Source: Acidobacteriota bacterium (GTDB lineage Bacteria > Acidobacteriota > UBA890 > WLXD01). Taken from it: a DNA stretch of 64,000 bases. The position numbers and the translations under genes were made by a program. Under the pieces are notes generated by a model. That model ran no database searches and was not told where the DNA came from. It saw nothing but the letters and a program-made list of their open reading frames with translations. Positions 52,057-58,480 of this stretch are shown one piece after another. The stretch spans positions 96,001-160,000 of the forward strand of contig CAXWPL010000002.1 in assembly GCA_963666215.2 (NCBI GenBank). The letters run 5' to 3'. Numbering within the stretch: position 1 is the stretch's first letter; every line of letters starts with the position of its first letter.

Positions 52057-54777
52057 GTGAGCAGATCAACAACCGCGGGTGCTGGCTCGCCGCCGACCGA
52101 CGCGAACCTCGATCGTGTGGTCGATCCGGCGACCGCAAGGGTTCTCGAGATCGATGCGCTACTCGACCTGCTGGCTGGCGGCGCGCAAACCGAGATGGGC
52201 GCGGGGCGGGTCGGCGGGCTGCAACCTTCAACCCAGATCGATGAGATCGAGGCGCGTCTCGACGCCGTTGAGGCAACGCGCGATTGGGCCGCCAAGAACG
52301 GCTACCTGTCGCTCTCGGCGGCGAGCCCGCTGGAGCCGATTCTGCGGCGGCTGCATACCGCCGGTATCGTGCTCCACTCCGAGGAGCTCCTCGCGGTTGG
52401 CCGCACCGCAGGCGTTGCACGAGAGCTCCGGCGGCGACTTGCGGACGCGGGCGCGTCGGCGCTCGGTCGACTCGCCCGCGCGACGCCCGATCTGTCGCAT
52501 CTCGTCGGCCACATCGATGGCTTGTTCGACCCCGACGGCGAGGTTTGCGACGACGCCTCCCCGGCGCTGGCGCGGGCCCGACGACGCGGCGGGCGGCTGC
52601 GCAGTGAGCTGCGCACGCGCATGGACAAGCTGGCGCACGACGATCGTCTTCGTGACGTCCTCAGCGAATCTCTGGTCACCGAGCGGGCCGGACGATATGT
52701 GCTGCCAGTCCGGTCGGGTCGGCGCGAGGCGGTGGAGGGCATCGTACACGACTCGTCGTCGTCGGGGCAGACGGTGTTCGTGGAGCCGCTCGAGCTGGTT
52801 GAACCGCAGAATCGGTTGGCGGAGGTGGTGCGCGATGAGGCCCGTGAGGTCCAGCGCTTGCTCGCCGAGGCAACCGCGCACGTGGCGGCCGCCGCTCCTG
52901 GGCTGGAGCAGGCAATCGAATGCATCACCGAGCTCGACGGGCTGCAGGCTCTGGCGCGCTACTCGAACCGCGCCGAGGCAGTGCGACCACGATTGATCGT
53001 GGCCGCCACAGCAGCCTCGGAGGCCCGTTCTGACGACCAGGCGGTGGTAGTCGAAGTCGACGGCCGTGTCGATGCCGATCCCGATAATGATGCCGATTCC
53101 AGGGTCGGGCTGCGCTTGCGCGGTGGCCGACATCCGTTGATGGAGACTGCGGATGCAGCGGATGGACTCGATGTTCCGAGCTTCGTCCCTCTTGATCTCG
53201 AGCTTTCGAGTCACCAGCGTGCCCTCGTGATCACCGGCCCCAACACCGGCGGCAAGACCGTCCTGCTCAAGTCGATCGGGCTACTGACTTTCATGGCGCA
53301 GTGCGGAGTTCCAGTGCCGGCCGTCGAGGCCTGGTTGCCCGTCGTGCCACGGCTGTACGCCGACATCGGCGACGAGCAGAGCATCTCGGCGAGCCTGTCG
53401 ACCTTCTCGGGGCACCTCGAGCGTATTACCAGCTTCCTGGCCGACTGCCCTGCCGGCAGCCTGGTGCTGCTCGACGAGCTCGGCACCGGAACCGATCCGG
53501 CCGAGGGTGCGGCGTTGGCGATTGCAGTGGCGGAGCGCTTTGTCGAGCTCGGCGCGCTCTTGATGCTCTCGACCCATCACGACGCGTTGAAGTCGTTTGC
53601 CCACTCGCACCCGAGCGCAGTCAACGCGGCCATGGAGTTCGACGCCGCCAGCCTGGCGCCGACCTACCGGGTTCGCGTCGGCCGGCCGGGGCGCAGCAGC
53701 GCGCTGCTCGTCGCCGCCGGACTCGGGTTGGATGCCGAGCTGGTGGCTCGGGCTCGAGGACTCCTGAGCGGCGACGCGGTGCAGCTCGATCGCGTCATCG
53801 AGCGTCTCGAAGAAGAGGCCGCCGAGGCCGAGGAGTCGCGGCGGCGTCAGGAGGAAGATCTCGACGCGCAGCGCGTCGAGCTCGAGAGCTCGCTGCAACG
53901 GCTGAGAGCGGCTGATGCCGAGCACAAGAAGCGGGCCACGGAGCTTCAAGCGCAGCTCAAGAACGCCATCCGCGATGTGGCCGAGTCGCTGCGTGAGCGC
54001 GGCGAGCAGAAGCTGGCCGAGCTCGGTGACGTTGCACCGGCGACGGGGCAGCGAACGCCGAGTGTGAGCAAGAGGACGGCCGACAACCGTCGCGCGCGCT
54101 GGCGTTCGGTCGTCGGGACGCTGGAGGCCGAGGCACACCAGAGTGCCCGAGAGCGATCTGGAGCTTCGAGCTCGAGCCTGGCGCCCGGCATCCACTCAGA
54201 GCTGGACGAAGAGGAACAGGCTGACGCGGTGGGCCCGTTGGCGCGTGGCCAGCGGGTGCATGTTGAGCCGTTCGGTATGCGTGGACGGGTCCTGCATGAG
54301 TGGACGCCGCGGGGTCGAAGCGCCGGTGAGACTGACGTCGAGATTGACGTCGGCGGGAAACGCATGCTGGCGCCACGCCAGCAGGTCAGGCCGCTCGGTG
54401 TTGCCACGGGCACAGGCGCCGGCGACGGCGGCGTCCAGACCCGAGCGTCGAAGCGCCGGGCCCGAGCACAGCGCGGAGCTTCGGTGGCTCGGGGCGGTGG
54501 CACCAGCTTCGAGCGGCGCGAGCGCTTCAGCGTTGCCACCGAGCTCAAGCTTGTGGGCCAGACCGTTGACGACGCGCTCGCGATGGCCGACAAGTACCTC
54601 GACGATGCGTTGCTCGCCGAGCTGACCGCTGTACGCTTGATCCACGGCTACGGCAGCTTCAAGCTCCGAGACGCGCTCCACGAGTGGCTGCGCGATCGCC
54701 CTGGCGTCTCGGGATTCGGCTCCGCCGGGCCCAGAGACGGTGGGGCCGGCGTCACGATTGTGAACCTCGGGAGCTGA
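52057..54777 (+). CDS. mutS2: Endonuclease MutS2
   Basis: GIVHDSSSSGQTVFVEP, ITGPNTGGKT, IGDEQSI, LDELGTGTDP, C-terminal Smr domain (IHGYG). Confidence 0.93.
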   Translation: MSRSTTAGAGSPPTDANLDRVVDPATARVLEIDALLDLLAGGAQTEMGAGRVGGLQPSTQIDEIEARLDAVEATRDWAAKNGYLSLSAASPLEPILRRLHTAGIVLHSEELLAVGRTAGVARELRRRLADAGASALGRLARATPDLSHLVGHIDGLFDPDGEVCDDASPALARARRRGGRLRSELRTRMDKLAHDDRLRDVLSESLVTERAGRYVLPVRSGRREAVEGIVHDSSSSGQTVFVEPLELVEPQNRLAEVVRDEAREVQRLLAEATAHVAAAAPGLEQAIECITELDGLQALARYSNRAEAVRPRLIVAATAASEARSDDQAVVVEVDGRVDADPDNDADSRVGLRLRGGRHPLMETADAADGLDVPSFVPLDLELSSHQRALVITGPNTGGKTVLLKSIGLLTFMAQCGVPVPAVEAWLPVVPRLYADIGDEQSISASLSTFSGHLERITSFLADCPAGSLVLLDELGTGTDPAEGAALAIAVAERFVELGALLMLSTHHDALKSFAHSHPSAVNAAMEFDAASLAPTYRVRVGRPGRSSALLVAAGLGLDAELVARARGLLSGDAVQLDRVIERLEEEAAEAEESRRRQEEDLDAQRVELESSLQRLRAADAEHKKRATELQAQLKNAIRDVAESLRERGEQKLAELGDVAPATGQRTPSVSKRTADNRRARWRSVVGTLEAEAHQSARERSGASSSSLAPGIHSELDEEEQADAVGPLARGQRVHVEPFGMRGRVLHEWTPRGRSAGETDVEIDVGGKRMLAPRQQVRPLGVATGTGAGDGGVQTRASKRRARAQRGASVARGGGTSFERRERFSVATELKLVGQTVDDALAMADKYLDDALLAELTAVRLIHGYGSFKLRDALHEWLRDRPGVSGFGSAGPRDGGAGVTIVNLGS

Positions 54778-54783
54778 TCGCCA

Positions 54784-56691
54784 GTGAGCTGGCCGCGGGA
54801 CTTCATCGACGAGGTACGAAGCAGCGCCGATGCGGTGCAGCTGATCGGCGAGGTGGTGGGCCTGGCGCGCCGCGGCACACGCTTCCTGGGCCTGTGTCCG
54901 TTTCACACCGAGAAGACGCCCTCGTTCGGAGTCAACGACGAGGGCCTGTGGTACTGCTTCGGATGCCAGGAGGGGGGTGACCTCTTCAAGTTCGTCATGC
55001 AGTACGAGGGTGTTGGCTTCAACGACGCCGTCCGCAGTGTTGCCGAGCGCGCGGGGGTGTCGGTTCCGGCGCAGGAGCAGCGCTCGGCTCGGCGCTCCGG
55101 CCAGGATCAGCCGCAGGTTGGACGCGACCGCATCGCGGCTGCGGTCGCGGCGGCGCAGGCTTTCTATCGCGAGCAGCTCGCTGCGTCTTCGGGGCAGGCG
55201 GCCCGCGAGTATTTAGCCGGGCGTGGTCTCGGGCCGGAGGTTATCGAGTCCTTCGGCTTGGGATTCGCCCCGCCCGGGTGGGACGTATTGAGTGGCCGCC
55301 TGGCGCGGCAGGGGTTCAGGCCCGAGGAGCTGGTTGCCGCCGGCCTCGCGAAACACCGCGATGCTGGACGCAGCAGAGATCGCGACGCCGGCAGCGTGTA
55401 CGACCTGCTGCGCGATCGGGTCTCGTTCCCGATTCGCGACATTCGCCGGCGTCCGATTGCGTTCGGCGGCCGCATTTTCGGCCCCGCCGCCAACGACGAT
55501 CAGCCCAAGTACATCAATTCACCGGAGACCGAGCTCTTCAACAAGAGCCGCACACTGTACGGCCTTGGCGAGGCTCGGGCCGCGATCAAGGCGGTCTCTT
55601 TTACTCTGCTCGTCGAGGGGTATCTCGACGTCCTGGCCTGTGTGCAGCATGGATACGGCAACGTGGTCGCTCCCATGGGCACCGCCTTCGGGGCCGAGCA
55701 CGCGCGCCTGCTGTCGCGTCATGCCACCAAGGTCGTGGTTGCCTTCGACGGCGACAGTGCCGGTCAGGCCGCGGCCGAGCGTACGGTGGGTGTGTTCCTC
55801 GGATCCGGCTTCCAGGTCAACGTGCTGCCGCTGCCGGCGGGGCAGGATCCCGATTCCTTCCTGGCGGACAAAGGTGCCGAAGGCCTGGCCACGGCCCTGC
55901 GCTCGGCACTGCCGGCGCTGGCCTTCTTGCTCAGTCGTGCCGGCGAGCGGGCCGATCTACGCTCGCCACAGGGCAAGGCACAGGCACTGCAGTCGCTGCT
56001 CGGTTTCGTCCTGCACATCGAAGACCGTGTTGAGCGCGCCGGATGGATCGGTCGCATCTCCCACGAGCTCGACGTCCAAGAACCGCTGGTGTTGCAGGCT
56101 CTCGACGAGCTCAACGCCCGCCAGCGAGGAAGCCAAAGAGGTCAACTGCAGGGCCGTGGTGCCAGCGACGGTCACGGCCGGAGCCTGGCCGCAGCGGCTG
56201 GCGACCTGAATGTCACGCAACGCCTGGAGGAGGTTTCGCACGCCGAGCGCGAGCTTCTTCGGGGCACGCTGCATCACCCGGAGTGGCATCAACGTCTGGT
56301 CCAGATCTGCGGTGTCGATGTGCGCGACCCACGTGTCGCCGGCCTTCTGCAGGCGATCTCGGTGGCCTACGCTCAGGACTCTTCGCAGAGGTCGACGAGA
56401 AAGGCCGACTCCATTTCAGGCCACGGGTTAACCGGCGAACAGATCTTGGCGCACTGCGACGTGGACGGGGCCGCTGCCTTGTTATCCCGCCTGCTGCTCG
56501 ATCAGGAGCCGATTCCCGACTGGGACGGGGCCCGCGGCGCGGCGGAGGCGGTTCGGCGCGGCGCCCTCGAACGACAGCTGCGCGAGCTTCAGCAGCAGGT
56601 CAACCTCGCCGTCCGGGGGGGGGATCGCCAGTTGGCGGACGAGCTTACCGCCAGGAAGCTTCAGATTGTCCACGAGCTCCGCGGGCTCTGA
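54784..56691 (+). CDS. dnaG: DNA primase
   Basis: CPFHTEKTPSF...CFGC zinc finger, KYINSPET, VEGYLD, FDGDSAG, DPD. Confidence 0.96.
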   Translation: MSWPRDFIDEVRSSADAVQLIGEVVGLARRGTRFLGLCPFHTEKTPSFGVNDEGLWYCFGCQEGGDLFKFVMQYEGVGFNDAVRSVAERAGVSVPAQEQRSARRSGQDQPQVGRDRIAAAVAAAQAFYREQLAASSGQAAREYLAGRGLGPEVIESFGLGFAPPGWDVLSGRLARQGFRPEELVAAGLAKHRDAGRSRDRDAGSVYDLLRDRVSFPIRDIRRRPIAFGGRIFGPAANDDQPKYINSPETELFNKSRTLYGLGEARAAIKAVSFTLLVEGYLDVLACVQHGYGNVVAPMGTAFGAEHARLLSRHATKVVVAFDGDSAGQAAAERTVGVFLGSGFQVNVLPLPAGQDPDSFLADKGAEGLATALRSALPALAFLLSRAGERADLRSPQGKAQALQSLLGFVLHIEDRVERAGWIGRISHELDVQEPLVLQALDELNARQRGSQRGQLQGRGASDGHGRSLAAAAGDLNVTQRLEEVSHAERELLRGTLHHPEWHQRLVQICGVDVRDPRVAGLLQAISVAYAQDSSQRSTRKADSISGHGLTGEQILAHCDVDGAAALLSRLLLDQEPIPDWDGARGAAEAVRRGALERQLRELQQQVNLAVRGGDRQLADELTARKLQIVHELRGL

Positions 56692-56909
56692 ACGTGACGC
56701 TGGCTGATGACTCATCGTGTTCGATCGCGACAGCGCTGCGAAAGGGTCGGCTGCTAGGGGTGGCCGCCGCAACCGTCGCACTCGATCCTGCGTACGTGCA
56801 GCTGTCCGGCGCGCGCGCGCGTCAGTTCGCCGGAGCGCATTACAATCACTCGGGGAGCTGCCGAGTCGGTTCACCGCTCCGGCATCGTGATTCTGGCGCG
56901 AGCCTGGGT

Positions 56910-56986
56910 GGGCCCTTAGCTCAGTTGGTCAGAGCCGCCGGCTCATAACCGGTAGGTCGCAGGTTCGAATCCTGCAGGGCCCACCA
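56910..56986 (+). tRNA. tRNA with CAT anticodon, most likely tRNA-Ile2 (lysidine)
   Basis: GGGCCCT/AGGGCCC-A-CCA acceptor, CTCATAA loop; fully paired 1-72 and no GGG/CCC anticodon stem, so not the initiator. TACAAT at 56841. Confidence 0.9.
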
Positions 56987-57046
56987 TATTCAGCCGCGAT
57001 TGGCCGCAGATGACAGGCGTGGTCCCGAGCGGCTAAGATGTCGCGT

Positions 57047-57240
57047 CCGGGCGGCAGCACGATCGCCCGATCGTATGGAAGCGGGTGGAACCGGATGCGA
57101 GACGACGGAACGGCCAGGTTGGCACATCGAGGAACGACGGCCGACGCGTGGCGGCACGCGGTCAGAGCGCATCTAATTGTCACCGGGGGCAGCTCCGCCC
57201 CTCGGGGGCGGCGAGCGGGTGGGCCTACGCCCGCCCTTTT
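57047..57240 (+). ncRNA. Candidate 6S RNA (ssrS-like)
   Basis: Own promoter ATGACA-N18-TAAGAT; long rod-like fold with a central bubble (see findings); ends in a T-tract. Confidence 0.55.
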
Positions 57241-57303
57241 TCTTGTGCTCAGAGGCATTGGGTCAAGGCGTAGCGCTCTCGAGTGGCGAGCAAGGAAGTC
57301 AAT

Positions 57304-58056
57304 GTGAACGTAAGCGACCAGCTGCGGGTATTGATCGAGTTGCAGCGTAAGGAGCTGGATGCGGCTCGGGTCGACGCTGAGCGGGCGACGTTGCCGGCGC
57401 AGAAGGAAGCATTGCAGGCGAATGTTGCGGTGGTGAAGGCGGAGATTGCGGTGGCCGAGGCACGGCTCGAAGAGTCTGCCGCCGACCGCAAGCTGCTCGA
57501 GCGTCAGGTCGAAGATCAGGAGGCCAAGGCCGAGAAGTATCGCGAGCAGGAGCTCCTGGTCAGGACGAACGAGCAGCTCTGGGCGCTGCAGAAGGAAATC
57601 CAGCAGGCGCGCGACGCCATATCGGGGTTCGAGGAGAAGATCCTCGAGCACATGGAGGGTTCCGAGGCGCTCAACACCGAGCTCGCTTCTCGGCGGCAAC
57701 GGCTTGCCGAGGTCGAGACGCTGGTCGCCTCGCAGGTGCGTGAGATCGACGCCCGCGCCGCGGCGCTCGCCCAAGAGCGCGAACAGCTGAGCGCGGAAAT
57801 CGGCGATGCCGAGCGCCAAGCCGATCACGATCTGCTGCGGCTCTACGGGCGCGTCAAGAACATTCGCCGCGGGGTTGGCGTGGCCGAGGCTCTCGAGGAA
57901 ACGTGCTTGGGCTGCAACACACGAATCCGGCCGCAGCTGTACGTGGATGTCATGAACATGGAGCGCATCGTGCAGTGCGACTCGTGCAAGCGCTTGCTGT
58001 TCTCGCGCAAGGCGCTCCAGCTGCCCTCCTCTGTGGAGATCGAGCAGCCTGCCTGA
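57304..58056 (+). CDS. C4-type zinc-ribbon domain coiled-coil protein (DUF164-like)
   Basis: Long coiled coil followed by CLGC...CDSC. Start may be 57283. Confidence 0.88.
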   Translation: MNVSDQLRVLIELQRKELDAARVDAERATLPAQKEALQANVAVVKAEIAVAEARLEESAADRKLLERQVEDQEAKAEKYREQELLVRTNEQLWALQKEIQQARDAISGFEEKILEHMEGSEALNTELASRRQRLAEVETLVASQVREIDARAAALAQEREQLSAEIGDAERQADHDLLRLYGRVKNIRRGVGVAEALEETCLGCNTRIRPQLYVDVMNMERIVQCDSCKRLLFSRKALQLPSSVEIEQPA

Positions 58057-58057
58057 C

Positions 58058-58480
58058 ATGGAAGGCCCGTTGATCGCGTACGTCGACGGGGCCTCTCGTG
58101 GCAATCCCGGAGCCGCCGCGTTCGGTGTCTGCGTTTGCGCCCCCGACGGCAGCGAGGTGGCCTGTTTCGGTGGCTCCTTGGGGCGCCAGACCAACAACTA
58201 CGCCGAGTACCGCGCTCTGATCGCGGCTCTGCGCTGGGCGTCCGAGCAGCGGGTGACGGAGTTCGAGGTGCGCTCTGATTCGCAGTTGATGGTGCGGCAG
58301 ATGGAAGGGCGTTACCGAGTCAAGTCTCCCGGGCTCAAGCCGCTACATGCCGAGGCGAGGGCCCTGGTGTCGTCCTTCGAGAGATTCCGCATCGTGCACC
58401 TGCGCCGGGAGAACAACGCCGAGGCCGACTCGATTGCCAACCGCGTGCTCGATGGCGATCCGGACCTGGAGCTGCGCTAG
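58058..58480 (+). CDS. rnhA: Ribonuclease HI
   Basis: YVDGASRGNPG, TNNYAEY, SDSQL, RENNAEADS. Confidence 0.93.
   Translation: MEGPLIAYVDGASRGNPGAAAFGVCVCAPDGSEVACFGGSLGRQTNNYAEYRALIAALRWASEQRVTEFEVRSDSQLMVRQMEGRYRVKSPGLKPLHAEARALVSSFERFRIVHLRRENNAEADSIANRVLDGDPDLELR

Follow-up and report, generated by a model that had tools for sequence, protein, structure and literature searches.

The stretch from 57046 to 57303 of the window, i.e. the whole 64,000 nucleotides of Acidobacteriota DNA that were analysed, is read here as the 5' leader of an operon encoding a zinc-ribbon protein (DUF164/CT398) and RNase HI (rnhA). Such a leader would carry a terminator or attenuator and would also yield a short terminated RNA, and the signals present in the sequence give this reading about an even chance of being correct. 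The sequence-only reading had seen at this place an unannotated structured RNA gene with 6S RNA architecture, and had set against that proposal an attenuator for the downstream gene, which is the reading now favoured by the evidence. The element, absent from Rfam 15, has been filed as lineage-restricted and of the leader-terminator kind, and not as a 6S RNA, a riboswitch or a T-box. A false 6S candidate is in this way replaced by a defined, lineage-specific leader and terminator ahead of the DUF164-rnhA pair, which is widely conserved and functionally obscure.

In the proposed mechanism, transcription would start at the GCTAAGAT promoter, near 57046, and most transcripts would stop at the strong terminator at 57217-57244 (around 57241-57245), leaving a non-coding RNA of ~196 nt. 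The minority reading through would carry the Shine-Dalgarno site together with the zinc-ribbon and RNase HI genes. Since most transcripts would end at the terminator and the remainder would pass it, the terminator is proposed to act as an attenuator which sets, and possibly regulates, the expression of the operon; a leader followed by a terminator is the classic attenuator layout. The same terminator would also halt transcripts coming from the upstream tRNA gene. Its invariant stem would be recognised by a factor, for which our guess is the zinc-ribbon protein itself and not a switch made of RNA only.

On the + strand of the window, mutS2 and dnaG are followed by a tRNA gene with a CAU anticodon, the candidate region, the zinc-ribbon gene and the RNase HI gene, with the following features:

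52057-54777, + strand: mutS2
54784-56691, + strand: dnaG
56910-56986, + strand: tRNA, CAU anticodon (Rfam tRNA, 73.3 bits; called Met by ARAGORN)
57010-57039, + strand: sigma-70-like promoter ATGACA-N18-TAAGAT, with -10 context GCTAAGAT
57048-57069, + strand: predicted 5'-proximal hairpin CGGGCGG / UCGCCCG (fold of 57046-57211)
57084-57184, + strand: predicted central domain, GGUG/CACC and GAUGCG/CGCAUC around a branched apex (pair probabilities 0.48 and 0.95)
57192-57216, + strand: predicted penultimate hairpin CCGCCCC-UCG-GGGGCGG (minimum free energy structure)
57217-57244, + strand: intrinsic terminator GGGUGGGC-CUAC-GCCCGCCC followed by UUUUUCUU (signal scan; ensemble probability 0.97)
57245-57303, + strand: 59-nt spacer from terminator to zinc-ribbon start, with the Shine-Dalgarno-like AAGGAAG at 57292-57298
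57304-58056, + strand: zinc-ribbon coiled-coil protein of DUF164/CT398 type (Pfam Zn_ribbon_9 and CT398_CC)
58058-58480, + strand: RNase HI, rnhA (Pfam RVT_3 and RNase_H)

The Ile-like body of the tRNA at 56910-56986 suggests an Ile2-type identity. The start of the zinc-ribbon gene was placed at the GTG at 57304, and not at the alternative GTG at 57283, because of the Shine-Dalgarno-like site, and rnhA begins 1 nt past the zinc-ribbon stop codon. A neighbourhood of dnaG, in some cases rpoD, tRNA-Met(CAU), DUF164 and rnhA is a known conserved synteny in several phyla, as described in the available part of PMC3372290. The window resembles the DUF164/FlgZ neighbourhood of that available text in bringing dnaG, tRNA-Met(CAU), the DUF164 gene and rnhA together, and differs from it in lacking rpoD. 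In the synteny of PMC3372290, as far as the available text goes, rpoD lies between dnaG and the DUF164 gene; it is absent at 54784-57304, where the tRNA and the DUF164 gene directly follow dnaG. The same text, in its available part, does not speak of any RNA element, or of a terminator, in the interval from the tRNA to the DUF164 gene. PMC8469502, in the portion available, already describes a link between DUF164 and NIF3, and mentions no RNA element at the DUF164 locus.

A nucleotide search with the 261-nt region against 41 related genomes returned its own copy and three chance-level matches of 26-30 nt only, and the zinc-ribbon protein is only 38-47% identical to the window's within its own family (31-39% in genera of the sister family). 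For these two reasons, the loci were compared by synteny. A metagenome scan with the zinc-ribbon protein found a single distant locus at 32% identity, so that it provided no close relatives for covariation. At eight sister-family loci of genera g8, g9, g10 and g12 (L016, L017, L019-L023, L058), the zinc-ribbon gene is preceded by a co-oriented tRNA gene; in g7 the tRNA is on the opposite strand, divergently oriented, and in g6 the 1.5 kb ahead of the zinc-ribbon gene contain none. At four loci of other Acidobacteriota families (L025, L026, L027 and L031), a tRNA-CAU is followed after 86-256 nt by a terminator directly 5' of the DUF164 gene; two of these hairpins begin with GGGUG and finish with CACCC, like the outer part of the hairpin found in the order.

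The absence of a credible ORF, noted from the letters alone, was confirmed: the four ORFs overlapping the candidate region matched no Pfam family, and GC by codon position is flat in this region (0.69/0.67/0.73), whereas dnaG, the zinc-ribbon gene and rnhA show a coding pattern, with 0.38-0.48 at position 2 and 0.79-0.84 at position 3. Taken with the transcription signals at its flanks, the missing Pfam matches and the flat codon GC identify the region as non-coding and framed by such signals. As for a leader peptide, small ORFs in the low-GC leaders of g9, whose sequences were read by eye, differ between species.

The promoter ATGACA-N18-TAAGAT, which had been proposed from the letters and has held up, is the sole promoter-like site in 56600-57500 (one found against 0.1 expected from shuffles), and suggests a transcription start near 57046. 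It lies upstream of the operon and is co-oriented with it, and the signal scan of 56600-57500 placed no promoter-like site in the spacer 57245-57303, between terminator and gene. In g2, g3 and g4, which belong with the window to one family, a -10 box also precedes the gene. In five loci of g3 and g4, a GCTAAGAT box stands 74-104 nt 5' of the zinc-ribbon start, and in one g2 locus a TGTTACCAT box stands 86 nt 5' of it, in both cases without the hairpin; in the window, the GCTAAGAT box is 272 nt from the start. By our own estimate from base composition, chance would place such an 8-mer in a span of 300 nt roughly once in 700 tries. Given that the same box (GCTAAGAT, or TGTTACCAT in g2) precedes the gene in g2, g3 and g4, the promoter at 57010 is taken to be that of the operon, and the candidate RNA to be the leader of the operon.

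The sister-family genera g6, g7, g9 and g12 share a promoter, TTGCGC/G-N15-TATACAAA, upstream of the hairpin. This pattern occurs seven times in five genomes, five of them at the zinc-ribbon locus. The transcripts predicted from it measure 173, 165, 183, 183, 182, 170 and 113 nt, compared with 196 nt in the window, so that the distance from promoter to hairpin end spans 113-196 nt in five genera, the window's included. Six loci (L012, L015, L016, L017, L018 and L019) carry, ~150-190 nt upstream of the hairpin, a 9-nt block GTATACAAA with the palindrome GTATAC, together with CTTGCG. As the block kept exceeds the need of two hexamers, a regulator site may overlap the sister-family promoter.

At the other end of the region, the scan recognised 57217-57236 as a terminator-like hairpin, with TTTTTCTT after it (two overlapping calls against 0.5 expected), and the T-tract that the sequence-only reading had placed at the end of the RNA is indeed part of an intrinsic terminator (57217-57244, probability 0.97), with its GC hairpin and U-run just 5' of the zinc-ribbon start codon. 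What is conserved between genera is this hairpin, GGGUGGGC-N4-GCCCRCCC with a U-run, in a single copy per genome. The window's genome has the pattern GGGTGGGC-N4-GCCCRCCC once, as do 11 of 15 sister-family (f2) genomes, the four that lack it being 68-75% complete; a reversed control pattern had no occurrence in the genomes scanned. It is missing from the ten further genomes of f1, the family to which the window belongs. Among genomes at least 80% complete, the count is 9/9 in f2 and 0/8 in f1.

All 12 genomes have the hairpin co-oriented with the zinc-ribbon gene and 10-59 nt 5' of its start. From the U-run to the start, the distance is 59 nt in the window, 53 nt in both g6 genomes, 19-20 nt in g9, 20 nt in g12, 15 nt in g7, 10 nt in both g10 genomes and 12 nt in g8, and thus falls between 10 and 20 nt in nine of the 11 relatives, with two g6 genomes at 53 nt. 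The hairpin tracks the zinc-ribbon gene rather than the tRNA: g6 retains the promoter, the RNA, the hairpin and the gene although no tRNA lies within 1.5 kb. Its fixed position and orientation (12/12) and a promoter kept in five genera count among the evidence on the side of a leader. With both ends conserved by position in relatives, the proposal of an unannotated non-coding unit of ~200 nt running from promoter to terminator is borne out.

In an alignment of the 12 copies of the hairpin, seven of ten stem pairs are invariant, two change on one side only (U-A to U-G, A-U to G-U), none shows a compensatory change, and the 4-nt loop is variable in most genera. Covariation among syntenic regions, to which the sequence-only reading had looked for support, was not obtained: the terminator stem shows no compensatory change and the body of the RNA is not alignable between genera. 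It deserves specialist attention that a terminator stem stays frozen between genera in which the zinc-ribbon protein has only 31-39% identity with that of the window.

Outside this order, the hairpin with its U-run is a generic terminator shape. In a scan of a species collection, at least 118 stretches from many phyla matched; among 80 loci fetched from these matches, a single one (L140) carries a zinc-ribbon gene, which is identical to that of a sister-family genome over 125 aligned residues.

The fold of the RNA body is less distinctive. The minimum free energy of the 211-nt stretch, -101.2 kcal/mol, is close to the mean of its shuffles (-95.9; z -1.05), 30 of 200 of which equal or exceed it in stability; by this comparison, the overall fold of the candidate is ordinary, no more than chance. 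When the predicted transcript 57046-57245 is treated as an ensemble, the local terminator hairpin reaches a probability of 0.97. The rod drawn by the sequence-only reading survives in part, since its inner stems are predicted (GAUGCG/CGCAUC at 0.95 and, less firmly, GGUG/CACC at 0.48), while its two closing stems reach only ~0.002. Enforcing the rod gives -85.1 instead of -89.8 kcal/mol, a cost of +4.7. The closing stems can be paired at all because the 5' hairpin at 57048-57069 and the terminator have similar G-run/C-run arms. All 25 base pairs named for the rod are standard at the places given for them, one being G-U, with the correction that CCGCCC ends, and does not start, at 57236.

The leaders of other family members likewise start with a GC-rich hairpin. 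An order-level RNAalifold alignment of the last ~90 nt kept nothing beyond the terminator hairpin and a 3-bp stem. In g9, the consensus of three distinct sequences contains a long-range GGUG...CACC helix in which one or two pairs are changed on both sides, and it has no central bubble.

Against this background, a 6S identity can be judged. A divergent 6S RNA, mimicking an open promoter, would sequester the RNA polymerase holoenzyme and replace the canonical 6S absent from the order; this is very improbable. The candidate does resemble 6S RNA (RF00013, ssrS) in being ~196 nt long, non-coding and GC-rich, and in allowing a rod-like alternative fold, no more than 4.7 kcal/mol above the minimum; the 165-196 nt predicted for the RNA of four genera would also suit a 6S. 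However, the Rfam 6S model gave no match at E<=10 in 56850-57450 or in the whole genome. This genome is 91.7% complete, and RNase P RNA (273 bits) and tmRNA (180 bits) were detected in it, so the search method works there. At gathering score, Rfam finds only two tRNAs in the window. The best non-tRNA match in 56850-57450, wcaG at 57188-57297 (26.2 bits against a cut-off of 42), was dismissed, as its score falls to 18.5 bits in g9.

A covariance model built from ten Acidobacteriota 6S RNAs (R1), which scores 129 bits on its positive control, was run with filters off over 56 kb comprising the candidate and six zapA-rny regions. Its best score on the candidate was 5.9 bits, on the penultimate hairpin alone, and its best anywhere was 10.7 bits. 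Neither a rod nor a central bubble is conserved among relatives, by the order-level RNAalifold alignment and the g9 consensus. Presence and length are not conserved either, with the hairpin in none of the ten other family genomes and predicted lengths from 113 to 196 nt, the 113-nt version belonging to one genus. Moreover, the RNA finishes in a local terminator hairpin beside a start codon and not in the 3' strand of a closing stem. The context differs as well, the candidate lying in dnaG-tRNA-[RNA]-DUF164-rnhA and the phylum's canonical 6S in pheT-zapA-6S-rny. Model matches, fold and position thus all disagree with the 6S identity and architecture first proposed: RF00013 and R1 are negative, the rod is disfavoured and unconserved, and the 6S of the phylum sits at zapA-rny.

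The argument in favour of a 6S comes from the order as a whole. Across the 41 related genomes, RF00013 gave 11 matches, all in other families of the phylum (11/15) and none in the order (0/26), and R1 found nothing above 18.7 bits (E 0.16) in the 26 genomes of the order. By RF00013 and R1, these 26 genomes of the order contain no recognisable 6S RNA. This raises the prior for a divergent 6S, and nothing points to the candidate locus. The canonical 6S lies between zapA and rny (RNase Y), downstream of pheT, as established with Pfam on the flanks of L035, L036, L038 and L039; the remaining canonical loci have similar-looking ORF layouts. In the order, the zapA-rny gap measures 265 nt in the window's genome (L045:2900-3157, - strand) and 178-232 nt in three relatives. 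A divergent 6S in this gap was considered and rejected, with no Rfam match at E<=10, a z of -0.31 and no R1 match; among 41 predicted pairs in the gaps of five g3 genomes, no compensatory change was seen. Among the papers listed for 6S RNA in Acidobacteria, judged by their titles and the openings of their abstracts, nothing was specific to this lineage. That one whole order of Acidobacteriota has no recognisable 6S, though most of the phylum has one, is worth the attention of specialists.

Compared with known regulatory leaders, the candidate shares with transcription attenuators and other terminator-containing 5' leaders a promoter followed by 110-200 nt of structured leader, then a GC hairpin with its U-run and the start of a co-oriented operon, with no promoter between the terminator and the operon. 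Unlike them, it showed no leader peptide, conserved antiterminator or conserved aptamer, and it has no known effector. Riboswitch and T-box leaders have the same general layout, and the 5' arm of the candidate's terminator contains GGGUGG, recalling the T-box motif and complementary to the tRNA 3' end. The candidate differs from them in having no Rfam match at E<=10 and no conserved core between genera, and its downstream genes are unrelated to amino-acid supply. T-box pairing follows a rule relating the UGGG register to the discriminator base of the tRNA, and the candidate's UGGG register misfits the discriminator A. No riboswitch aptamer core with covarying helices appeared in the order-level alignment beyond the terminator and the 3-bp stem.

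Antitermination was assessed on the RNA cut before the 3' arm of the terminator. Pairing of the 5' arm with upstream sequence did not exceed shuffles in any of 11 leaders, 8-55 of 60 shuffles reaching the observed value, and no conserved antiterminator was found, the alternative fold in the window lying at +4.7 kcal/mol. Because antiterminator pairing does not rise above shuffles, the frozen stem suggests recognition by a factor over a riboswitch-like switch. A strong terminator without an antiterminator might allow too little read-through for expression of the genes, which weighs on the leader reading.

A conserved promoter giving mostly terminated RNA suits a trans-acting RNA equally well. 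In that case, which is unlikely though not by a wide measure, an independent non-6S sRNA of ~196 nt with its own promoter and terminator would merely adjoin the zinc-ribbon gene, and read-through would be incidental. The conserved promoter and strong terminator delimit a discrete predicted transcript in five genera. Many sRNAs carry a 3' module made of a hairpin, a C-rich stretch and a terminator hairpin with U-tail, and the 3' end of the candidate, with terminator and U-tail after a hairpin and a C-rich stretch (CACC/CCGCC), recalls it. Rfam searches of the relatives' loci returned only tRNAs and sub-threshold matches, and the weak sub-threshold matches all fall at the 3' ends of such RNAs (SorY, 29 bits; suhB, 19.5 and 15.7 bits). 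On the other hand, the comparison brought out no conserved single-stranded seed, the body being unalignable between genera, and the element keeps a strict place and orientation relative to the zinc-ribbon start, from which just 10-20 nt separate it in six genera. Elsewhere in the family, the -10 box stands directly 5' of the gene and the hairpin pattern is missing (0/10), which argues in the same direction.

It is less probable still that the RNA has no dedicated function, the hairpin insulating the operon from a highly transcribed tRNA gene, with a weak or fortuitous promoter-like site and an operon promoter that escaped recognition. Consistent with insulation, g8 and g10 have no TATACAAA motif between tRNA and hairpin, other Acidobacteriota families show the succession of tRNA-CAU, terminator and zinc-ribbon gene with unrelated hairpins, and the pattern of hairpin and U-run is generic across bacteria, as the at least 118 matching stretches attest. 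Yet hairpin and promoter persist where no co-oriented tRNA exists (g6, g7), and the promoters are conserved at the sequence level. An ordinary terminator is expected to drift with compensating changes, but this stem is invariant across genera with strongly diverged zinc-ribbon proteins.

That same invariance leaves room for a more specific idea, which we hold to be a long shot: the hairpin would be a sequence-specific operator within a new autoregulatory leader, the DUF164 protein or another factor binding the GGGUGGGC/GCCCRCCC stem and tuning termination or translation; the terminated RNA of ~200 nt may in addition act in trans. Relatives of the DUF164 zinc-ribbon protein have been reported to bind RNA. 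If true, this would be the first defined RNA target for DUF164 proteins, and would link tRNA-Ile2 with RNase HI expression.

Sequencing runs were of no help on expression. Run X1, labelled metatranscriptomic ChIP-Seq and only by guess derived from RNA, contains just fragments of a ~96% identical relative, in which one contig begins at 57236 and 57010-57211 is uncovered; in runs X2, X4 and X5, whose type is unstated, the region is unchanged. None of these four has a bearing on expression.

Some further features of the terminator were observed. In g7, g8 and g10 (L020, L023, L018 and L058), the U-run opens with TATTTT, 10-15 nt 5' of the zinc-ribbon start, and g8 and g10 are without a clear Shine-Dalgarno ahead of that start. 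The TATTTT could be either part of a promoter overlapping the terminator, which would give a nearly leaderless mRNA, or a U-run aiding initiation. Were it a -10 box, it could uncouple the zinc-ribbon gene from read-through in these genera.

GGUGGGC(C), in the 5' arm of the terminator at 57217-57236, complements the tRNA 3' end, GGCCCACC (56977-56985), and the 3' arm copies the tRNA end, as GCCCACC in seven of the 12 copies and GCCCGCC in five. The tRNA 3' end is identical in all loci examined. The match of arm and tRNA end was noticed post hoc and may be due to chance in GC-rich sequence. In addition, an exact 9-nt direct repeat, AGCGGGTGG, occurs at 57080-57088, in the central domain, and at 57214-57222, at the start of the 5' arm of the terminator.
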